The translations under genes were made by a program, and so were the position numbers. The notes under the pieces were generated by a model. That model saw only the letters and a program-made list of their open reading frames with translations, searched no databases and was not told where the DNA came from. A DNA stretch of 12,568 nt from a virus. Lineage: Duplodnaviria > Heunggongvirae > Uroviricota > Caudoviricetes. The stretch is taken from IMG/VR virus record IMGVR_UViG_2740892115_000002. The stretch is one strand, 5' to 3'. Positions 1,911-12,568 of the stretch are shown in pieces. How positions within the stretch are numbered: the stretch's first letter is position 1; each line of letters opens with the position of its first letter.

Positions 1911-2130
1911 ATCAACGGGTTAGGCCAGAGTGCAAATTTGCACTCTGGAACAATTCCAACCAGTTATCGGCATCAGGCCCACCAGCCAACGCAATTTTGA
2001 GCTTTGCTTTAATCTCAGTGAGTTACCGCGCCAATTTCCGCAGTCTGTGTAAATTGGGAAGAATCAACGGGTTAGGCTGGTTTCCCCGATGTTCGCCGCT
2101 GGCGAATTTCGAAAATATCAACCAGTTACC
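1911..2130 (+). repeat. Four direct copies of a 12-14 bp motif ATCAAC(G/C)(G/A)GTTA
   Basis: Copies at 1911-1925 (atcaacgggttaggc), 1955-1968 (tccaaccagttatc), 2063-2077 (atcaacgggttaggc), 2117-2130 (atcaaccagttacc). All in the same orientation in ORF-free DNA; the last overlaps the stop of the 93-aa ORF. Confidence 0.6.
1925..1948. promoter_or_regulatory. 24-bp perfect palindrome ccagagtgcaaa/tttgcactctgg; candidate dimeric protein binding site or recombination core
   Basis: First half ccagagtgcaaa is the exact reverse complement of second half tttgcactctgg. Directly abuts the first ATCAACGGGTTAGG repeat. No flanking T-run on either strand, so not a terminator. Confidence 0.5.
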
Positions 2131-2407
2131 GCCGTAACCGCTCCGGCTTCTTCCAGTGGTACGTAATTTTTGCTTTTTCCCTGTACGTCTGCACGCGGCG
2201 ACGGTAGGCCAGCATTTCAAGAACGCGGATCCGTATGTCGCGCATATCAACATCATTAAGCTGGATACCATCACGGCGCATCACCTCAGCAACAACACGC
2301 ACATAATTTTCAGCGGTCACGCTGTCCGGCTGTGTGGCCTGTTCGTCATGCTGCTGGCTGATTCCGGTAACGCGGCGGATTAATCCCAGTAGTTCGGCTT
2401 CTGTCAT
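2126..2407 (-). CDS. Hypothetical 93-aa protein adjacent to the cos region
   Basis: ORF with GGGGG Shine-Dalgarno-like sequence 4 nt upstream of the ATG. Basic C-terminus. The opposite-strand ORF 2156..2383 looks like a low-complexity antisense artifact. No family recognised. Confidence 0.5.
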   Translation of the reverse strand: MTEAELLGLIRRVTGISQQHDEQATQPDSVTAENYVRVVAEVMRRDGIQLNDVDMRDIRIRVLEMLAYRRRVQTYREKAKITYHWKKPERLRR

Positions 2408-2440
2408 TGTGCCCCCATCGCTCTGATAGTCTGGTGTCGT

Positions 2441-2670
2441 CGGGTCCTTCCTGGAATTATGGCCCGTTACGGGGCGGCGACCTCGCGGTTTTTCGCTATT
2501 TATGAGATTTTTTGAGGGGGTGGTTGTTGTTTAATTGTTTGGTATATCTAATTGATAAGTAAGGTAAAAATAAAATAAATACAACAACCTTACGATGTAT
2601 TTTGATGTCATTAATGTGAAAAAATTCAATGATATCAAATGGTTTTGTAAAAACACATGGTTGTTGTATC
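2441..2670 (+). other. cos-like site A (rightward orientation): lambda-type cosN plus GGTTGTTGT repeat set
   Basis: 2462-2487 gcccgttacg|gggcggcgacct|cgcg matches the lambda cosN and 12-nt cohesive end GGGCGGCGACCT as I recall it (core 2472-2483), followed by TTTTTCGCTATTTATGA as in the lambda left end. Inward repeats GGTTGTTGT at 2522-2530 and 2659-2667, inverted ACAACAACC at 2581-2589, with AT-rich spacers. Confidence 0.6.
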
Positions 2671-2844
2671 GCGTATTTGATGGCGTAACAGAAAGTGATT
2701 TTTAACTTTACCGCTCTGTAACTACGGATTATTCCATGCTGGCACGGAGAACGGCTACGGCATGACGCCACCCAGCCTATACAGAACAGTAAAGCCGATA
2801 AATTGTTAATCACGCGCAGCAATGCGTGTGATTTTTGCACACTT

Positions 2845-3038
2845 CCGGTTAACGGGTACGATGTCCGGTTTTAGTGTCTGTTTTTTGCGCATGTCCGGTT
2901 CATAGAAAGCATGTTTTTATATTTTTCATATGGTTAACTTGCAGAGAAACCGGACATGGATCCCGGAAAATTTTCATAAATAGTGAAAACGCGCGAGGTC
3001 GCCGCCCCGTAACGGGCCATAATTCCAGGAAGGACCCG
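2845..3038 (-). other. cos-like site B (leftward orientation): lambda-type cosN plus ATGTCCGGTT repeat set
   Basis: Read on the minus strand from 3038: cosN (core 2996-3007), then CGTTTTCACTATTTATGAAAATTTTCCGG, which is nearly identical to lambda sequence just inside cosN from memory. Then ATGTCCGGTT-type repeats at 2948-2957, 2891-2900 and 2861-2870 in a direct/inverted/inverted pattern, spaced roughly 50, 105 and 135 bp from cosN, reminiscent of lambda R3/R2/R1 with an AT-rich stretch between. Confidence 0.65.
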
Positions 3039-5517: not shown

Positions 5518-5940
5518 TTAAAACGGTATGTTATCCCCGTACGGATCATCATTCCCCGCCTGTTGTTTTGCCCTGTTCAGCGCGTCAGTAGCCTGGCCCT
5601 GTTGACCTTTTTTGCCGCCCAGTCGCGCCGTTCGCGCACTGATTACACTGTCTGCGATAACCTGCCAGCCCTGCCGCGTTTCTCCGTTCTGCCCAGTCCA
5701 CTGGCTGATCTGCATGTTACCCGCCACGCTCAGGAGTTCACCCTTGCGGTGCCTTTCCAGTGCTTCGGCCTGTCTGCCAAATGCCAGGACGGATAACCAC
5801 ATCGTCGCCGTTCCGTCATCTGCCTGGCTGCACGGAAGGGGGACCGCCATACGCGCCAGCGTCATCGGTGTGCCCTTGCTGGTCTGTTTTACCTGCGGGT
5901 CGTCCACCAGCCGCCCGTAAGCTGCTATCTGTGCTGTCAT
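5518..5940 (-). CDS. ssb: Single-stranded DNA-binding protein (SSB-like, 140 aa)
   Basis: OB-fold-like N-terminal region with SSB-like blocks (LSVLAFGRQAEALERHRKGELLSVAGNMQISQWTGQNGETRQGWQV), Gly/Gln-rich linker, and acidic C-terminal tail ending DDPYGDNIPF, comparable to the DDDIPF tail of E. coli SSB. Confidence 0.8.
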   Translation of the reverse strand: MTAQIAAYGRLVDDPQVKQTSKGTPMTLARMAVPLPCSQADDGTATMWLSVLAFGRQAEALERHRKGELLSVAGNMQISQWTGQNGETRQGWQVIADSVISARTARLGGKKGQQGQATDALNRAKQQAGNDDPYGDNIPF

Positions 5941-6215
5941 GATTCCACCTCTCCGGTTTTAACGTTGATGGTTGTTACCTGTTCCGCTTCGGCAATCTCC
6001 CGCTCTGTCAGCGTGGCAAAATTTGCCGCCGTCGTGGTCATGAATGCGCTTATCAGTTCGGGATGTGCTTTCGCGTATCCTTCCCCCGCGTGGCGGTCTA
6101 TCGTTCTGATTGCCACCTTTAAAGCGTGCTCTGTCATGTCTAACGCGCGATATTTCGGTTCTGTTCTGTCTCTGCGTTTTTTGAGTGATTTATTAAATTT
6201 CCCTGAAGTGTGCAT
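5937..6215 (-). CDS. Hypothetical 92-aa protein translationally coupled to ssb (start uncertain; internal Met at 6137 possible)
   Basis: Stop overlaps the ssb start (ATGA). Lies directly 3' of the iteron origin. No family recognised. Confidence 0.45.
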   Translation of the reverse strand: MHTSGKFNKSLKKRRDRTEPKYRALDMTEHALKVAIRTIDRHAGEGYAKAHPELISAFMTTTAANFATLTEREIAEAEQVTTINVKTGEVES

Positions 6216-6259
6216 ATTTATTTTTACCCCCTCGTTTAAAAAGTTTTGAGTTGTGCCTC

Positions 6260-6495
6260 CCCTTGTCTACCTTATCTACCTTAGTGGCCCTCATGCCAGT
6301 AATGGCGCGGCTTTCAGCGGGGTAGAGTGCTTTTATCCACTATCTACCCCGTGTCTACCTCCCTGTCTGATTCAGGTAAAATCAGGTAGAGAGGGTAGAT
6401 AGTGGGTAGACAGTAAAAAAAGGCTATCTACCTAACTTAATGCACTGAATTAAATGTATTTTTCTTTACTCAGGTAGACAGGGTAGACAGCAATT
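6260..6495. repeat. Replication origin-like iteron array (about 11 copies of the 7-bp unit TCTACC / GGTAGA in both orientations around an AT-rich core)
   Basis: gtctacc and atctacc at 6265-6280, ggtagag at 6321, atctacc and gtctacc at 6342-6359, ggtagag-ggtagat-ggtagac at 6386-6411, atctacc at 6426, ggtagac-ggtagac at 6474-6489, with an AT-rich segment at 6434-6471. Located immediately 3' of the primase-helicase gene, as in satellite and PICI origins. Confidence 0.7.
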
Positions 6496-6503
6496 ACAAA
6501 AAA

Positions 6504-8258
6504 TTATAAAAACGCGTCGCACTCGTCTGTTGTTATTGCGTTAGTCTGCGTTACCCCCTTAACTTTCCGCGTAATATATTCATGTCCGTAAACTTTTGCG
6601 GCAGGCTTCATAGCCTTTCCAAAGTCATTTACGTTTAGCGGTTTGCTCCTGCCTGCGTATGCCATAAACGCCAGATAGACGCGGTAAAGGCTGTTCCTGG
6701 TCGTGTACTTCACTGAATCGCCACCGCCCCCCATCATCAGGCCGCGCGCTTCCTCCAGAAAATTCAGGAACTGGCAAAACTCAATAACCGGATCCGTCTG
6801 TTGCTTTATTGCCAGTGCTTCATCACCGTCACGCTGTTCCAGTAGTAAAGCCCGTGCCTTCTCAGGGTCGGTAAAGTTCGCCAGCAATCGGCGGATAATG
6901 ACAGGGATTTCAGCCGCGATCTTTTCCGGTAGCTCCCTGTCTTTTTCGGCCTCACTGACGATATTGTCGAAACGGAAAATCACGCGACGACGTGCCACAC
7001 CTCCGGCCCGTTCGGTGAATATCATCGGGTTATTGTTGGTCGCCAGCACCACCGCCCTGATTACAGCCGTGAAACGCTTTTCGTATTTCGGGTTAATTTC
7101 CACGGGGTCACCGCCCGTGATTTTCTTGATGCCCGTTCCTTCGCCTGTATATTTCGGCTGGTCAGCCAGGACGATAAGACGACTCCCGACAACCTGCGCA
7201 CGTCCACCAGCATCATCAAGCGATGTCATTTCAGCGCTTACCGTGTTCTGTTTCCCTGCCAGAAGGCTGGCTATGTGCGTGAATGTACTTTTACCGCTCC
7301 CGCCGTCTCCGGTGGCCTCAATAAACATCTGCCAGTCGTACCGGTTCGCCATAATCATGTACAGCGCGGCACATATACGCATCATCTTGCGCGGGTCTTT
7401 TCCGGCTGCGTGCTCAAGCCATTTATGAAAGTTTGGCGCGTTATCGCGGATGTTCTCCCCTGGTGCTGGTGGCGTGTACTCAATGCCGTTGTGCGTGGTG
7501 ATCCAGTTCTCCGGCGTGTGCGGGGAAAATCCCCCCGTTTTCAGGTCAAGCGCACCATTGGCGAACGGCAGCAAATCGCCGGACGGCTCGCCCATTGGTT
7601 CGGCAATAACTTTTAACGCTTCCACGGCGTTATTGATTACGCGCTTGCTGAAAGTGGCCCTGTGCTCTGAATAGATCGCCACCATTTCGCGGCTAAGTTC
7701 CATTGTGCTGACCGGACACCATACCCCGCCGCGCCATACGTGAACGATTTCACTTTCAGGATGTACGCAAACGCCATCAAAGCGATCGGCAAGCAGCTGC
7801 GCGCGCTCACTGTCCGCCATCTGCGAAAGTTGCGCCTTTTGCTTTACCGGAAGCTCAATGACCAGACCATCAGAAAGATTCTGGCGCTCACGGGCCAGAT
7901 ATTCGCGCCAGTTCTCCACCTTCTGACCGTGCATACCATCAGGGTAAAAATTTGCATCCTGTACGCCTGCCGCCGCCAGCTTCTGGCCAATCGCCTTTAT
8001 CATTACTGGCGCAAGATATCCGGCCCTGAATATGCGCACGGATTTTCTGCCTTCCGGCACAATTTGCAGCTTATCCAGTTCTGATAACTGCTGCTCCCCA
8101 AGCCACACAGGAGGCTCATTATCTCCGGCCATACGCGCATCATGTTCCTGCCATTGTTTCGCGTGTGCCCAGGCATCACTACCCGCAAAAATAATGACTT
8201 CTGTTCCTTTGTGTTTTATGCCGCGTGACTGCTGTTTTACGTTCGGTGCCAGTTTCAT
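6504..8258 (-). CDS. Replication initiator, P4 alpha / D5-family primase-helicase-like (584 aa)
   Basis: Walker A motif GDGGSGKST and downstream D5/P4-type helicase-like blocks. Size and position (upstream of iterons) fit a pri-rep gene. AGGGG Shine-Dalgarno-like sequence; start overlaps the upstream ORF stop (ATGA). Confidence 0.8.
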   Translation of the reverse strand: MKLAPNVKQQSRGIKHKGTEVIIFAGSDAWAHAKQWQEHDARMAGDNEPPVWLGEQQLSELDKLQIVPEGRKSVRIFRAGYLAPVMIKAIGQKLAAAGVQDANFYPDGMHGQKVENWREYLARERQNLSDGLVIELPVKQKAQLSQMADSERAQLLADRFDGVCVHPESEIVHVWRGGVWCPVSTMELSREMVAIYSEHRATFSKRVINNAVEALKVIAEPMGEPSGDLLPFANGALDLKTGGFSPHTPENWITTHNGIEYTPPAPGENIRDNAPNFHKWLEHAAGKDPRKMMRICAALYMIMANRYDWQMFIEATGDGGSGKSTFTHIASLLAGKQNTVSAEMTSLDDAGGRAQVVGSRLIVLADQPKYTGEGTGIKKITGGDPVEINPKYEKRFTAVIRAVVLATNNNPMIFTERAGGVARRRVIFRFDNIVSEAEKDRELPEKIAAEIPVIIRRLLANFTDPEKARALLLEQRDGDEALAIKQQTDPVIEFCQFLNFLEEARGLMMGGGGDSVKYTTRNSLYRVYLAFMAYAGRSKPLNVNDFGKAMKPAAKVYGHEYITRKVKGVTQTNAITTDECDAFL

Positions 8259-8554
8259 TTTTTACCCCTGAATCCTTTAATCATGGTTTTCATCTTCTGA
8301 ATATTGGCGCGTGCTTTCTCCCTGCTGGTGGGCACGTTACGCGGTACGGCCTGCACAAGAGAAAAATCACGGTCGAACTGATAAACAGGCATCACGCAAT
8401 CATATTCGTAGCCTTCACGACGGTAGGTTACGCGCCGTTCCTCCACGCCCTTAATCATTACCGTGCCGCCGTACTTATCGCGGTAAATATCACCGCGCAT
8501 GAATTTAGTGCGAGTTTTGCCACTGGCAGTTAAGCCAGAATATTTAAGTTTCAT
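8255..8554 (-). CDS. Hypothetical 99-aa basic protein, translationally coupled to the primase gene
   Basis: ORF ending in an ATGA overlap with the primase start. Lys/Arg-rich. No family recognised. Confidence 0.55.
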   Translation of the reverse strand: MKLKYSGLTASGKTRTKFMRGDIYRDKYGGTVMIKGVEERRVTYRREGYEYDCVMPVYQFDRDFSLVQAVPRNVPTSREKARANIQKMKTMIKGFRGKK

Positions 8555-8559
8555 TATTT

Positions 8560-8793
8560 TTATTCTCCGGTGTGGGGCGCTTTATACTGGTCGTGTAATG
8601 TCTCTATTTCCTGCAACTCATTTATTACAGGCTCAAGAAGCGTTATTAATGCCGTGACAATCCTTGATTTCTGTTTATCACGTTCATTATCTCCAAGCGT
8701 TTCAAGACATATGCGCAATATTTCCAACATATTTTCACTGTGAGAAAGTGCAAGAAATGCGCGGTCTATTGTTTCGTGGTAAATATCACGCAT
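8560..8793 (-). CDS. Hypothetical 77-aa protein
   Basis: Tightly packed same-strand ORF in the operon upstream of the primase gene. Confidence 0.5.
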   Translation of the reverse strand: MRDIYHETIDRAFLALSHSENMLEILRICLETLGDNERDKQKSRIVTALITLLEPVINELQEIETLHDQYKAPHTGE

Positions 8794-8794
8794 A

Positions 8795-9229
8795 TTAATC
8801 CCCGTCCGTCGTTTTTCTTAAAATAACCTCTGTCACGAAATCAGCATAATCGGCGGCGATATTCAGTACATCAAGCCCCGTTGATTTATATTCTCTCGTG
8901 GAAAGTAAGAAAAAATCCGCTCTAATAAGCTCTGGCATTGACGAAAGCGCATCAGCCGCATCATCAGGAACGCCGGAAAATTCCTGTTTCAGGGAATTAA
9001 AACGATCATCACGCATAACCCCCCCATTTTCACAATCAGCAACAAGAATATTTTTAGCGTCATTCAGCGACCGCGTTGCGATGTATCGGATACATTCCAG
9101 GGCGAACTGTGTCCGGTCTTTCTGTTCTTCTCCCTGCGCAAGCTCTGCCGTGCATTCAATATCAATAAGCGCGTGCATCAGCGTAGTGAGTGCGGCGGCG
9201 GCTGCGTCCGGTGTGGTTTTATTGCACAT
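8795..9229 (-). CDS. Hypothetical 144-aa protein (the ORF extends to 9283, but a GGAGGGG Shine-Dalgarno-like sequence favours the ATG at 9229)
   Basis: ggaggggtacATGtgc context at 9229. This start overlaps the stop of the upstream 76-aa ORF by about 11 nt. Confidence 0.5.
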   Translation of the reverse strand: MCNKTTPDAAAAALTTLMHALIDIECTAELAQGEEQKDRTQFALECIRYIATRSLNDAKNILVADCENGGVMRDDRFNSLKQEFSGVPDDAADALSSMPELIRADFFLLSTREYKSTGLDVLNIAADYADFVTEVILRKTTDGD

Positions 9230-9449
9230 GTACCCCTCCGCATTTTTTTTCGTTAGAAATAAGCGTTCTTCTTTCCTGTTCATCGCTCAGGAATACGCAG
9301 ACCTCACCGCTAAGGCGTTTAAGTAAGCCGATGATTGCCCCTGATTCGCTGTCGGTCATCATGCCAGGGTAATCCTCTGCCAGTGCGCAAATAACTTCGA
9401 TTTGGTGGGCGCGTTCTGCTGCCTGTTGTAGTGTGATTTCCTGGCTCAT
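9219..9449 (-). CDS. Hypothetical 76-aa protein
   Basis: ORF whose start overlaps the stop of the upstream frame (ATGA at 9446-9449), part of the tightly coupled operon. Confidence 0.5.
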   Translation of the reverse strand: MSQEITLQQAAERAHQIEVICALAEDYPGMMTDSESGAIIGLLKRLSGEVCVFLSDEQERRTLISNEKKCGGVHVQ

Positions 9450-10732
9450 AAGCCTACCCCCTGACGAATACGGGCAGCAAATACCATCACGCAGCCAGCC
9501 GGAGATTGCTGGCGTGCTTCCTGTTCGCTGGTGGCCTCAATGGTAATCACGCGCGGTTGTGCCGTGCTCAGGGCGATAAAACGCCAGATGTATTTATTCA
9601 GGTTGTGCGAGTCCCGCCCTTGCGGGTGTGTGGTATGATTTAACATAGCTACCTCGATACTTTCGCTATCGTTGGTGGTTAGAAGCCCTGCGAGTGGTAA
9701 CGACACTTGCGGGGCTTTGCATTTATGCACCTTGATAATCTCAAGGTGTGGCCCACTATATGCTTTAGGTGTGGCCCACGTCAAGGGTTTTATTTGTGCT
9801 TTTTCTGTGTATACTGTCCCCCACCAATCCAACAGAGGAATAGAAATGGCAACGGGTACAACAAACGCAAAATCACAAGCTCTAAAGGCTCGTGTACCAC
9901 ACGAAATAGTAAACGCCATGGAATCAGTGAAAGAATCAGGCGAAAGCACATCACAATTCATCATTGCGTCAATGCAAGGCGAGATCAAACGCCGCCAGCG
10001 CCGCAAGGCCAAAGAGCAGGAGTAACCATCACCAGCGCCGTGGTGTGAGTAACTACGGCGCATTGCTATGCAGGACAACACAATGACCGATAAAGAATTG
10101 ACCAAAACATTATCACCGGCACGGAAAAGACGGCGCAGAAAGATAGAGCATGAATCAGAAAGATTCGCGCCATGTGCTTTTGCCCTTGAGCAATTCCTTA
10201 AAGAGTACAGGGAAAAGCGCTCATTGCAGGTATGGCAACGAACTGAACCTGACTGATTGCATTGCCCACCAGCCGCAAATGTGGCATTGTTGGCAATGCT
10301 CATGCGTTGGGGATAACGTGTAGCTTGTGTCGAGGGGCCACCGTAGCGGGTGGCCTTTGTTTTGCCCGTTATTCGGCAATTGTGGCGCTTCTCCACATGG
10401 TTGATATAATCCCACTGCTCAGATTCATTTTTTGCGCAGTAGGTTAATTGTTCACAAAGGCGCTCCGGCAACGGGGCGCTTTTTGTTTTTATTAGTTTGT
10501 AGAAACCTGACTCAGAGATAATGCTCATATTCTGATTGCCGTCAGGGGTGTAAGTTAAATTTACTCCCTTTTTATCATCAAACATCTGCAACGCTCTGGC
10601 GTTAACAATATTGGTTTCACTCCCGCCAGTAAGGCCGGAAATAACCGGAATAATTTCGGCAAAATTTTGCAGATTCTGTTTTTCAGGACGAACGAAGCCC
10701 CGCCCTTGTTCGGGAGAATATCCAGTATTCAT
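9446..10732 (-). CDS. Uncertain 428-aa open frame; likely a real N-terminal domain (about 115 aa from 10732) and/or a short C-terminal gene (possible start 9643, 66 aa), with the middle unlikely to be coding
   Basis: The N-terminal part has normal protein-like composition (NLTYTPDGNQNMSIISESGFYKLI, faintly like phage antirepressor N-domains). The central part is Cys/Arg/Ser-rich and antisense to two plus-strand small ORFs with good Shine-Dalgarno-like sequences. No in-frame stop until 9446. Confidence 0.3.
   Translation of the reverse strand: MNTGYSPEQGRGFVRPEKQNLQNFAEIIPVISGLTGGSETNIVNARALQMFDDKKGVNLTYTPDGNQNMSIISESGFYKLIKTKSAPLPERLCEQLTYCAKNESEQWDYINHVEKRHNCRITGKTKATRYGGPSTQATRYPQRMSIANNATFAAGGQCNQSGSVRCHTCNERFSLYSLRNCSRAKAHGANLSDSCSIFLRRLFRAGDNVLVNSLSVIVLSCIAMRRSYSHHGAGDGYSCSLALRRWRRLISPCIDAMMNCDVLSPDSFTDSMAFTISCGTRAFRACDFAFVVPVAISIPLLDWWGTVYTEKAQIKPLTWATPKAYSGPHLEIIKVHKCKAPQVSLPLAGLLTTNDSESIEVAMLNHTTHPQGRDSHNLNKYIWRFIALSTAQPRVITIEATSEQEARQQSPAGCVMVFAARIRQGVGL
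9744..9779. promoter_or_regulatory. Divergent control region with two direct 13-bp repeats AGGTGTGGCCCAC (9744-9756, 9767-9779)
   Basis: Repeats 23 bp apart in the intergenic region between the minus-strand small-ORF operon and the plus-strand RHH-like gene. A TATACT -10-like hexamer at 9811-9816 lies upstream of the plus-strand ATG at 9846. Confidence 0.5.
9846..10025 (+). CDS. Small ribbon-helix-helix-like DNA-binding protein (59 aa), candidate island repressor or regulator
   Basis: AGAGGAA Shine-Dalgarno-like sequence 5 nt upstream of the ATG. Sequence pattern of a beta-strand followed by two helices (KSQALKARVPHEIVNAMESVKE...STSQFIIASMQ) and a basic tail RRQRRKAKEQE. Family assignment is by pattern only. 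Confidence 0.5.
   Translation: MATGTTNAKSQALKARVPHEIVNAMESVKESGESTSQFIIASMQGEIKRRQRRKAKEQE
10083..10256 (+). CDS. Possible small basic protein (57 aa from the ATG at 10083; the ORF is open from 10068)
   Basis: AGGA 7 nt upstream of the ATG at 10083. Contains an RKRRRRK stretch. Weak support. Confidence 0.3.
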   Translation: MTDKELTKTLSPARKRRRRKIEHESERFAPCAFALEQFLKEYREKRSLQVWQRTEPD

Positions 10733-10784
10733 GGTTAGATCTCTGTATTAGTGGATGGGTGGCGGCTGTGTGCCGCCAGCCTGA

Positions 10785-10973
10785 TTAGTGAACTGCCTCG
10801 CAGCTGTCCTTCCATGCCAGAACTTCGGATAAAGACCAGCCAACGGAACGACCGCCCAGCTTACGCCGTGATGGGAATTGTCCGGCTTTTTCCAGGCGGT
10901 ACCGACATGAGCGGCTCAGGCCTGTAAGTTGCTGACATTCTTTTTCACGTATAAAGCGATCTGTGCTTAACAC
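10785..10973 (-). CDS. alpA: AlpA-family (phage Xis/MerR-like) transcriptional regulator, 62 aa
   Basis: Matches the AlpA pattern as recalled: LTGLSRSCRYRLEKAGQFPSRRKLGGRSVGWSLSEVLAW versus AlpA TG..R.TIY......FP....LG.KSVGW...EI..W. Position next to the integrase is typical. Confidence 0.75.
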   Translation of the reverse strand: MLSTDRFIREKECQQLTGLSRSCRYRLEKAGQFPSRRKLGGRSVGWSLSEVLAWKDSCEAVH

Positions 10974-11254
10974 AATTCCCCCTTTGTTGTTTCTTAAAGA
11001 GTCATTGGGTGGATTATTGGGTTGGGTTGTGTCGGATTGTGTCAGGGTGTTTGTGGAATGGCAAACACTGGCGGCGGTCGTTTTACAGAAGCAGGGGAAA
11101 TGAGAATAAAAACTCTTTTAATTCATTATGATGCAAAGGCATAAAATTTTACTTTTACGCCTTTTTTACATATTTTTAAGAGTGATTCGCCAGTGTATAA
11201 AAAAACAGTACACCTATAAAAATCAAATGGTTATTACGATGGCTGATTTTTAAC

Positions 11255-11313
11255 CCGTTGTTCCATTTTGTTCCTTGTTGTTCGTCGTTGTGTCTCGTTG
11301 TTTCACGTTGTCC
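11255..11313. repeat. Six tandem copies of a CGTTGT-containing unit at about 10-bp periodicity, directly 3' of the integrase gene
   Basis: ccgttgttcc / ttttgttcc / ttgttgttcg / tcgttgtgtc / tcgttgtttc / acgttgtcc, with units starting near 11256, 11267, 11277, 11286, 11296 and 11306. A related GT-rich set (ggttgtgtc, gattgtgtc) lies at about 11025-11055 near the alpA 5' region. Confidence 0.6.
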
Positions 11314-11338
11314 GCATCCTGAAAAATCGCAAAAAAAA

Positions 11339-12568
11339 TTATATTTCTCTGGCTATTGGCAATGTGGTTACGTTTTCATGTGTTCCCGCCAGTATCCCTA
11401 ACCGCTCCGTCCACATATCCAGCGCGTCACGTTTCGCATCCAGATAACGGGAATGGTTATAGACTCGTTGCATCCCTGGCATCTGATGACCTGTAAGCTG
11501 CTCCACGACGTGAGGATCCACGCCTAAATCGTTCAGCATCGTTGTAAAGGTGCGCCGGATGTCATGCAGTGACCAGTGAGGGTGTTTTAGCCTCCTGTGC
11601 GCTAATCTGCCGTACTGCGACACGCTTGTTTCCTGTTTCACTTCCCCCAGCAATAAGCCCGTGTGCCTGTTCTGCTCCACCAGCTGCGTGACGAACGGCA
11701 GTATTGCTTCCGGTATGGGCCGGAATATTGCCACCTTCGTTTTGCTGTGTTCTTTCGGCACGGTCCAGAGCATTTCGGTAAAATCCCACTCGCTGATCTC
11801 CGATAACCTCAGTTCTACCGTCCGGCATCCGAAAACAATCAGGAGGCGGATTAGTGCGACGTAGTAAGGGGAAAATATTTTTTTGTCCAGTGCCTGCAAT
11901 AATTCGCCAAGTTCTTTGGTGCTTAAGACGCGCTCGCTTATATCCGGTTTTTTCCCAACGTCCGCCACACTCATATCATCAAGAACGTTGCTGATTGCAT
12001 AGCGCCGCCTCCGGCAGAACTTAAGCGCCTGTTTGCACGTCTGTAGCAAGAATCCGGCAGTAACAGGCGTTCGCTTTGCCACCTGGTCAAAACAGGCCAG
12101 CCAGTGCCGTAGCTCGCATTTATCCAGCGGCATAGCACCAATGTGCTGTATTACGTGATTATTAAGGCGCTTTTTCAGGGCGGCATAATCCACGCGGTTT
12201 TCCTTTGCGTACGACTCAAGCCAGTAGGTGAGCGCATCGCCAACCGTTACCGGCTTTAACGCTTCCTGTACGGTGTAATTCATTTCATGACGTGGATTTT
12301 TCCCCTCTGCCAGCCATGCGCGACACTGGGCGGCTTTTTCCCTGGCTGATTTCAGGCTCAGATCAGGATAATTTCCCAGCTTAATGCGTTCCGGTGGTGC
12401 CCCCCTTCCCGTTCCGGCCCTGTAAGTGAAATACCAGGTTAAAAGGCCACTGGTTGAATGCCTGACGCTCAGGTTTCCACCGTCATTAAGAAAGGCTGTT
12501 TTTTGGGCGGGTGTGCCGTTGATTTTCCTCAGCTGTGTATCGCTCAGTTTGTTAAGTGCTCTGCTCAT
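11339..12568 (-). CDS. int: Tyrosine recombinase, P4-type integrase (409 aa; start codon at the window edge)
   Basis: N-terminal arm-binding-like region typical of P4-family integrases (DGGNLSV...W.F.YR......R..LG.YP..SLKSAREKA...AWLAEGKNP). C-terminal catalytic region includes HDIRRTF and HxxR...Y (RVYNHSRY). The start lies on the last base of the window, so an upstream in-frame start cannot be excluded. Confidence 0.9.
   Translation of the reverse strand: MSRALNKLSDTQLRKINGTPAQKTAFLNDGGNLSVRHSTSGLLTWYFTYRAGTGRGAPPERIKLGNYPDLSLKSAREKAAQCRAWLAEGKNPRHEMNYTVQEALKPVTVGDALTYWLESYAKENRVDYAALKKRLNNHVIQHIGAMPLDKCELRHWLACFDQVAKRTPVTAGFLLQTCKQALKFCRRRRYAISNVLDDMSVADVGKKPDISERVLSTKELGELLQALDKKIFSPYYVALIRLLIVFGCRTVELRLSEISEWDFTEMLWTVPKEHSKTKVAIFRPIPEAILPFVTQLVEQNRHTGLLLGEVKQETSVSQYGRLAHRRLKHPHWSLHDIRRTFTTMLNDLGVDPHVVEQLTGHQMPGMQRVYNHSRYLDAKRDALDMWTERLGILAGTHENVTTLPIAREI

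Follow-up and report, generated by a model that had tools for sequence, protein, structure and literature searches.

A long open reading frame antisense to a putative repressor operon in an EcCICFT073-like satellite island and its relation to eta/kil of phage P4

In phage P1, icd has to be translated for transcription downstream of it, and in satellite phage P4 the terminator timm is Rho-dependent. The P4 region is described, in that part of PMC10111431 which deals with it (citing Forti 1999), as a long frame, eta, which contains a constitutive promoter together with CI and seqA sites and of which Kil is a truncated form. According to the same part, full-length Eta is made only from an upstream late promoter, translationally coupled to an alpA homologue, and 'Eta translation prevents termination' (again citing Forti 1999). 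Phage-inducible chromosomal islands (PICIs) have 'Bro zones' that can hold CI/seqA homologues (PMC10111431), and in isrK-orf45-anrP of Gifsy-1 translation of a leader open reading frame (ORF) is required for the downstream gene, its nucleotides being conserved while its amino acids vary (PMC4825925). Here, an ORF of 428 codons is described, which is located on the minus strand of a 12,568-nt stretch of Caudoviricetes DNA (IMG/VR record IMGVR_UViG_2740892115_000002; this whole stretch is called the window), runs antisense to two small genes, and probably represents an island version of the P4 arrangement.

The window contains a satellite island sited between phoQ and roxA, with int, alpA, primase, SSB, PerC, major capsid and head decoration genes. 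Escherichia coli CFT073 holds the same island at the identical site. The whole window showed 97% identity to CFT073 on first comparison; compared piecewise, the region of the long frame was identical and other segments were mosaic. Positions 9300-11400 are 100% and 9001-12000 at least 99.9% identical, and the translated long frames do not differ. The island is therefore either the prototype Gram-negative PICI, EcCICFT073, in which the long ORF is c1487, or a close variant of it. The order int-alpA-...-primase, the fixed chromosomal site and the identity to an element whose mobilisation has been reported (PMC6092414) are those of a Gram-negative PICI. The window differs from EcCICFT073 in other parts: segments 2000-3000 and 12001-12568 as well as 5600-7000, the last with 82-91%, are only 82-92% identical, which, beside the near-identity of 9001-12000, suggests recombination among EcCICFT073-like islands.

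In EcCICFT073, alpA is induced by the helper phage, AlpA is reported as an activator of its own promoter and of downstream genes, and overexpression of AlpA alone triggers replication of the island; the existence of a repressor was called 'unclear' (PMC6092414). The long ORF is listed in the supplementary table of that paper as 'c1487, icd-like, 428 aa', and the two plus-strand genes discussed below are not among the loci around c1487 in this table. RefSeq annotation shows a 66-amino acid (aa) Icd-like protein, a YlcI/YnfO family protein and a hypothetical protein here, with 10257-10784 left empty. The conflicting coding signals noticed in the original prediction, which was made from the letters of the sequence, are therefore a genuine conflict between public annotations.

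An open frame across an antisense operon

The long read-through ORF (9446..10732, minus strand), counterpart of P4 eta, begins with ATG and contains no stop codon; the stop-free stretch, 9449-10747, comprises 433 codons. Over this stretch 25 and 30 stops are present in the other two minus-strand frames and 16, 12 and 21 in the three plus-strand frames, so that the 1287-nt stop-free frame of the original prediction (9446-10732) was borne out, with 12-30 stops in each of the other five frames. The two other sense frames have a stop density of 0.063, from which the probability of an open frame is calculated as about 1e-7 for the 247 codons of the middle part (residues 116-362) and about 2e-5 for the 165 middle codons that are not opposite to a plus-strand coding sequence. 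Base composition was considered as a cause and rejected: the minus strand has 25.6% A and its other frames contain 25-30 stops, and an even composition of this kind does not account for the open frame. The middle was also correctly noticed to be rich in Cys, Arg and Ser (5.3%, 8.1% and 10.9%), and no family of Pfam, NCBIfam or PHROG matches residues 116-346. The two plus-strand ORFs to which the middle was said to be exactly antisense do lie there, but their coding sequences cover only 48% of it. The remainder overlies plus-strand terminators, a spacer, divergent promoters and a leader.

Both plus-strand genes are real. The first, ylcI (9846..10025, plus strand), specifies a 59-aa protein, proposed to be a ribbon-helix-helix (RHH) immunity repressor, and the second a basic protein of 57 aa (10083..10256, plus strand; phrog_21027, E=1e-15; WP_000130015.1). 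Their predicted positions and Shine-Dalgarno (SD) sequences, AGAGGA and CAGGA, were confirmed, and both genes are annotated in RefSeq.

The frame recurs in relatives. Upstream of the Icd-like gene, its frame contains no stop for 190-490 codons in about 85 of about 90 related loci, which come from E. coli, nine other genera and metagenomes. Three other E. coli islands, chosen from a ranking blind to ORFs, have frames of 364, 541 and 479 codons that end in the Icd-like gene, with 296-487 open codons upstream of the Icd domain and 11-32 stops in the other frames. Sampling of one genome per species yielded ten usable loci, eight of which (E. ruysiae, Cedecea, Rahnella, Enterobacter, Superficieibacter, Rosenbergiella, Intestinirhabdus and Tenebrionibacter) contain 193-310 open codons upstream of the Icd domain. 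Among the metagenome loci with an Icd match, the open stretch upstream reaches at least 189 codons in about 70 of 78. Across the sampled loci, the other sense frames contain 10-30 stops. More than 100 clusters of full-length homologues, 360-475 aa long, 58-87% identical and named 'Icd-like protein', are found in the protein database; 369 members belong to the cluster with the Bro-N-fused version present in the window (P0001), and an 84%-identical cluster (P0010) occurs on at least 1000 contigs. Four exceptions (L035-38, which are one variant, L093, L008 and L009) keep an ORF of 219-401 codons that overlaps the icd start in another frame. An internal break was detected in L041 alone, and its ylcI is likewise broken. 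At least 12 sequence classes that are almost completely different in their variable segments all have the open frame.

A corresponding ORF of 214 codons is present in P4 (NC_001609, 8168-8812, minus strand). It starts at the end of vis/orf88, the start signal ATGATGATG overlapping the vis stop, spans the genes recognised by Rfam as isrK (seqA) and C4 (CI RNA), and ends with the 65-aa Kil. The C-terminus of this ORF matches NF033153 at E=1.4e-20, the same model as the Icd-like protein of the window, and the last 66 codons of the window ORF are a homologue of P4 Kil; the link was made through this NCBIfam model, P1 and P4 being too distant for BLAST. With the 66-aa Icd-like protein, the whole ORF and YlcI as queries, tblastn against 50,697 phage records returned one satellite-like record and short Ant/Bro-N matches, and none for YlcI. 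C4 and isrK RNAs are both present in P4, L003 and L008. In L003, one frame of 541 codons holds the antisense 57-aa gene and ylcI, followed by isrK, C4 and finally the Icd domain; this locus bridges the P4-type and the window-type arrangement.

The variation among these loci reveals what is conserved. The ylcI start and a fixed Icd codon are 239, 248, 251, 254, 257 or 263 nt apart, all 2 mod 3, in 73 loci, and the fusion is broken precisely in the five loci in which they are 246 or 255 nt apart. Spacer lengths in the open-frame loci vary only by multiples of three, and the starts of ylcI and of the 57-aa gene are separated by 237, 255 or 363 nt, always 0 mod 3. The plus-strand genes are always in the phase in which their wobble positions face those of the long ORF.

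Selection on the encoded residues was assessed by the ratio of nonsynonymous to synonymous differences (pN/pS). For the 85 codons from the ylcI start to Icd codon 20, comprising promoters, operators and leader, 26 distinct sequences of about 26% divergence were compared. The long-ORF frame is free of stops in every one of them, and each of the other five frames is interrupted in all 26. For the long ORF, pN/pS is 0.97 here, where no plus-strand gene lies opposite, so that purifying selection on the amino acids of both antisense frames was not found. The value for the Icd part is 0.296. In the ylcI region it is 0.405 in the frame of ylcI itself, the lowest of the six frames, versus 0.504 in the long-ORF frame, and in the region of the 57-aa gene 0.39 versus 0.68. 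Within the N-terminal Bro-N remnant the ratio is uninformative, pS being only 0.016, and the 135 nt adjoining the stop of the 57-aa gene are not alignable in a gapless comparison (pS about 0.5).

In 40 distinct ylcI sequences, the codons at risk, for which the T-ending synonym creates an antisense stop, were counted. T is found in 0 of 151 such codons, with about 50 expected (at comparable positions elsewhere, 32.8% of third bases are T), while A, G and C occur 57, 46 and 48 times. When synonymous codons were resampled, the antisense frame was open in 24-34% of cases given the YlcI sequence and in 71-92% given the 57-aa protein. Phase-keeping insertions and deletions, the absence of T at at-risk codons and a pN/pS of 0.97 lead to the conclusion that openness and phase of the frame are under selection and that the amino-acid sequence of the long ORF mostly is not. 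Because T is absent from at-risk codons and resampled sequences are open in only 24-34%, the constraint runs from the long ORF onto the codon choice of ylcI, and not the reverse.

Overall, the interpretation given in the original prediction is partly supported. Of the explanations it offered, a genuinely overlapping antisense gene pair comes closest: both strands carry selected frames, but the minus strand is selected only for being free of stops. Stop avoidance imposed by the opposite strand assumes the wrong direction, given the resampling result, the absence of T from at-risk codons and the coverage of only 48%. Full-length homologues, which according to the prediction might expose the plus-strand ORFs as spurious, are abundant, but they are not under purifying selection throughout, and the plus-strand ORFs are genuine.

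Ends of the frame and the probable immunity region within it

Upstream of the long ORF and on the same strand lies alpA (10785..10973; Pfam Phage_AlpA, E=3e-18), the source of the transcript proposed to carry it. The ATG at 10732 follows 52 nt beyond the alpA stop (10785). In several classes of relatives the long-ORF ATG is located 9-12 nt past the alpA stop and is preceded by AGGGGAG, a canonical start signal. Between the alpA stop and the start in the window, a GC-rich hairpin (TGGCGGC-TGTGT-GCCGCCA, 10760-10778) is found, which is kept in relatives with compensatory-looking changes (GGCGGCGCACCGCCGCC in L031 and L032). In 12 loci (L048, L058, L064 and nine other metagenome loci), the open frame directly adjoins the alpA stop codon, so that alpA and the long ORF are in the same frame with this one stop between them. 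An int-alpA RNA motif (Rfam RF02996) was detected upstream of alpA in two cross-species relatives, L005 (117-185) and L015 (264-329), and not in the window.

The window ORF is an in-frame fusion of a remnant of an AntA/Bro-N antirepressor gene (10487..10732, minus strand; residues 1 to about 82) to the read-through ORF. The match to Pfam Bro-N, limited to model positions 37-85, stays below the cutoff (14.2 versus 25.6 bits), and PHROG anti-repressor matches fall within residues 49-88. The window thus lacks a full Bro-N/AntA domain, whereas L003 has a complete AntA of 266 aa. Window positions 10587-10800 are 92% identical to alpA and the antA N-terminus of L003; residues 1-49 correspond to this N-terminus (92% nucleotide identity) and residues 50 to about 82 to another Bro-N fragment. 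Islands whose long ORF directly follows alpA share the sequence from residue 83 onwards; at this point stands KSAPLPERLCEQ, the reverse reading of the second plus-strand terminator. A decayed or fused gene, another of the explanations offered, is therefore found in the first 82 or so codons and not in the rest of the ORF. Likewise, of the two ends thought to be protein-like, the last 66 residues match NF033153, but the N-terminal remnant comprises only about 82 residues and not the presumed 115.

The frame ends with a nested Icd/Kil-like gene for 66 aa (9446..9646, minus strand), which is in the same frame and has its own SD sequence (GAGG-N6-ATG). Its product matches NF033153 (phage_ICD_like) with E=1.4e-19 and 69.9 bits (cutoff 25) over residues 19-62 of 66, the model having 48 positions. 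The SD sequence and ATG of icd are invariant in 28 variants.

YlcI matches the YlcI/YnfO family NF041551 with 67.4 bits (cutoff 30) and also phrog_949, and homologues span the Enterobacterales and beyond. In the AlphaFold model (predicted local distance difference test score 90), a strand is followed by helices at 19-28 and 35-58; this order of a beta-strand and two helices and the structural similarity to solved RHH proteins indicate that YlcI has an RHH fold. Pfam RHH models give weak, sub-threshold hits with members of the family, and no significant sequence match of YlcI to any solved structure was obtained. YlcI matches are absent from the islands L010 (Rahnella) and L013 (Rosenbergiella). 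A different 59-aa RHH-like gene (…FQFRLDPELREMMEKA…AAWIKRIIRKEL…) occupies the same antisense position within the long ORF there (L010, 1632-1811; L013, 2658-2837; both minus strand). The 57-aa gene is present in about 70 of 78 metagenome loci; its product is rich in arginine and lysine, has no recognisable domain and is co-transcribed with ylcI. Two intrinsic terminators follow on the plus strand. The first (GGCCACC-GTAGCG-GGTGGCC and a T run, 10336..10364) has its DNA conserved in relatives and reads as 'NCRITGKTKAT' in the long ORF; the second (GGCGCTCC-GGCAAC-GGGGCGC and a T run, 10456..10493) corresponds to the conserved KSAPLPERLCEQ stretch. These two terminators, scored as unrelated sRNAs, are the only low-score Rfam hits in the window.

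An early promoter driving icd and the replication genes is predicted inside the long ORF (9755..9784, minus strand; -35 TTGACG, 18 nt, -10 TATAGT), with 10 of 12 consensus matches and a -35 region conserved in 50 variants; it would be the counterpart of P_LE of P4. Two identical 11-bp boxes, GTGGGCCACAC, overlap its -35 region and spacer (9769-9779) and its -10 region and start site (9746-9756), and are proposed as YlcI operators. A third, degenerate box, GGTGGGGGACAG (9814-9825), overlaps the -10 of the ylcI promoter (TATACT, 9810-9815, plus strand; whole element 9806..9825), where variants share the motif CAGTATACA. The boxes of other islands are GTG-N5-CAC with other central bases, GTGTAAGACAC being an example of another class, and are again repeated in each island. 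The box centre and the N-terminal strand of YlcI change together, and at least 12 pairs of box and N-terminus exist among the islands. A repressor and its operators would be expected to vary in this way, which suggests that YlcI may bind the boxes. The RHH fold of YlcI and the co-varying repeats support the expectation, expressed in the original prediction, that the region is the immunity or derepression switch of a satellite.

The leader of the early transcript (9655..9748, minus strand) is predicted to be structured, with hairpins at 9728-9748, 9685-9715 and 9655-9671 (minimum free energy -34.6 kcal/mol, z=-4.2). In hairpin 9685-9715, compensatory changes have occurred at six pairs, and no pair is disrupted. 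Hairpin 9655-9671 (CGATA-N7-TATCG) has an invariant stem and a variable 7-nt loop, and its flanks pair with the icd SD sequence. At least seven different loop sequences occur among the islands; together with the invariant stem, they suggest a loop-specific partner, RNA or protein.

Proposed function of the frame and alternatives

We consider it probable that the 428-codon frame is the island version of the nested eta/kil ORF of P4 and that it is translated across the immunity region. The frame leads from just after alpA across both terminators, then antisense through the 57-aa gene and ylcI, and over the divergent promoters, the proposed operators and the leader to its Kil/Icd-like end. In the quiescent state, YlcI made from the plus strand would bind the repeated boxes and hold the early promoter (9784-9755) down, and the leader hairpin would hide the ribosome-binding site of icd. 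A helper phage would turn on the alpA promoter, and the transcript would enter the long frame from upstream. Ribosomes behind the polymerase would translate the frame, and this coupling may spare the transcript termination in about 1 kb of structured, otherwise untranslated RNA. The read-through transcript could then reach icd and the replication genes irrespective of YlcI, and the alpA transcript, which is antisense to ylcI mRNA, may also lower repressor synthesis. Binding of YlcI to the boxes, translation of the long frame and prevention of termination by this translation are inferred. A more far-reaching proposal, about which we are slightly more doubtful than confident, is that PICIs such as EcCICFT073 have a YlcI/YnfO RHH master repressor, with at least 12 operator specificities, antisense within a frame that only has to be translatable, and that alpA transcription overrides it by co-translational read-through plus antisense interference.

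Several points weigh against an eta-like function. In the window, the long-ORF start has a weak SD sequence and is located 52 nt after alpA behind a hairpin. Neither C4/CI nor isrK/seqA RNA was detected in the window at the Rfam gathering threshold or at E values up to 10. Wobble positions of both strands coincide, so that pN/pS inside ylcI separates the strands weakly, and the loci are phylogenetically related, so that their counts are not independent events. Translation of the frame and a terminator in the region are both inferred, and an AlpA protein of Pseudomonas is a processive antiterminator (PMC7969949); if PICI AlpA acts in the same way, translation might be dispensable.

The frame could be open only to bring ribosomes to the toxic Kil/Icd protein, by melting the hairpin at the icd ribosome-binding site or by making a long Kil fusion, with no antitermination involved; Kil would then be active on induction alone. 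The pairing of the invariant hairpin 9655-9671 with the icd SD sequence is consistent with this, as are the variants with a broken fusion, whose long ORF still overlaps the icd start in a manner typical of translational coupling, and the need for leader ORF translation in Gifsy-1 (PMC4825925). However, a short upstream ORF would suffice for this purpose, instead of 250-490 codons back to alpA across a convergent operon, and the conclusion cited for P4 is that eta translation prevents termination. Both ideas are compatible, and as the sole explanation delivery of ribosomes to icd appears unlikely.

It is rather improbable that c1487 is a functional multidomain protein of 428 aa, with a Bro-N-like N-terminus, a middle part and an Icd-like C-terminus, whose sequence matters. 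Expression of P4 Eta reportedly kills cells. The more than 100 clusters of 360-475-aa homologues could be taken to argue for such a protein, and c1487 is treated as a PICI gene in PMC6092414. However, the pN/pS of 0.97 over 85 promoter and leader codons is not that of a conserved protein, and the middle is swapped for unrelated content by lineage, RNA genes in P4 and L003 and one of two unrelated RHH genes elsewhere. Residues 116-346 match no family and are Cys/Arg/Ser-rich, and Phage_ASH, where present, corresponds to isrK/C4 RNA genes.

AlpA might instead render RNA polymerase resistant to termination, the open frame being a by-product of history, for example of a once larger antirepressor gene. 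The precedent in Pseudomonas (PMC7969949), the finding that AlpA is required for and activates EcCICFT073 genes (PMC6092414) and the full antA genes at this position in relatives point in this direction. AlpA may indeed contribute, but a by-product leaves the frame-preserving indels, the absence of T at at-risk codons and the openness across non-homologous inserts unexplained, and as an account of the frame we judge it very unlikely. That the ORF arose by chance or passively shadows the plus-strand genes is extremely improbable: the phase with wobble opposite wobble is the most permissive one, and resampled sequences are open in the proportions given above, but only 48% of the middle is opposite to coding sequence, the remainder has a probability of about 2e-5, and the frame recurs in at least 12 diverged classes and in other genera with frame-preserving indels.

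The 428-aa c1487 of the original annotation is thus reconciled with the 66-aa Icd-like gene, ylcI and the hypothetical gene of RefSeq, both frames being real. The long ORF is an unusually clean case of a long antisense frame that is selected for openness and not for sequence and that shapes the synonymous codons of the opposite gene, which bears on the judging of overlapping ORFs. YlcI is a concrete candidate for a repressor of Gram-negative PICIs, which AlpA-driven transcription would bypass by the proposed mechanism. The eta/kil principle, PICI 'Bro zones' with CI/seqA homologues and c1487 as an annotated gene are already known. In the literature searched, no description was found of an antisense RHH operon inside the frame, of evidence for selection on openness only, of the co-variation of YlcI and boxes, or of YlcI as candidate repressor of Gram-negative PICIs.

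Comparison with known systems

The eta-type ORFs also shed light on some database entries. Pfam Phage_ASH (PF10554) coincides exactly with the isrK/seqA and C4/CI part of such ORFs (8329-8704 in P4, L016; 1176-1449 in L003); the 'Ash protein family' is therefore largely a translation of conserved RNA genes. PHROG 6196 and 1743 tag the Kil/Icd-like protein as 'transcriptional repressor', and the RefSeq record of P4 still contains a coding sequence for a 137-aa 'cI gene product / transcriptional repressor' at 8168-8584. The tag looks like an inheritance from the time before P4 immunity was proved to be RNA-based. Phage_ASH is thus an artefact of annotating RNA genes, and the tag appears to be one that derives from the obsolete P4 'cI protein'.

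From the known phage and plasmid repressors with an RHH fold, Arc and Mnt of P22 immI, omega and CopG, YlcI differs in having no significant match to solved structures and only sub-threshold hits with Pfam RHH models. With isrK-orf45-anrP of Gifsy-1, the island shares a leader ORF with conserved nucleotides and variable amino acids, and the same RNA family is involved in that system, isrK being P4 seqA. However, orf45 has only 45 codons and no gene on its opposite strand, and it works through translational coupling to an antirepressor. With immI of P1/P7 (c4 RNA - icd - ant), it has in common a small division inhibitor of the Icd family that heads an operon, and an antirepressor gene in the module. 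There, in contrast, ant is located downstream of icd and the repressor is an RNA; tblastn to P1 gave no match at E below 1e-3.

Among the closest systems is eta/kil of P4. Both have a long ORF at the end of the alpA/vis homologue and a Kil/Icd end of 65-66 aa with its own start; an early promoter, constitutive in P4, and immunity determinants lie inside the P4 ORF and are predicted inside that of the window. In the window, the CI/C4 and seqA/isrK RNAs are missing, and an antisense operon of two genes is present instead, with an RHH protein and operators on divergent promoters. In P4 eta, no antisense gene longer than chance ORFs exists. The frame of the window also has twice the length and carries a Bro-N remnant fused to it. 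The three proteins regarded as common to PICIs and P4 (PMC6092414) are thus not the only link between them. If the proposed function is correct, the island would possess a protein-based counterpart of the RNA immunity of P4, built on a shared eta/kil scaffold.

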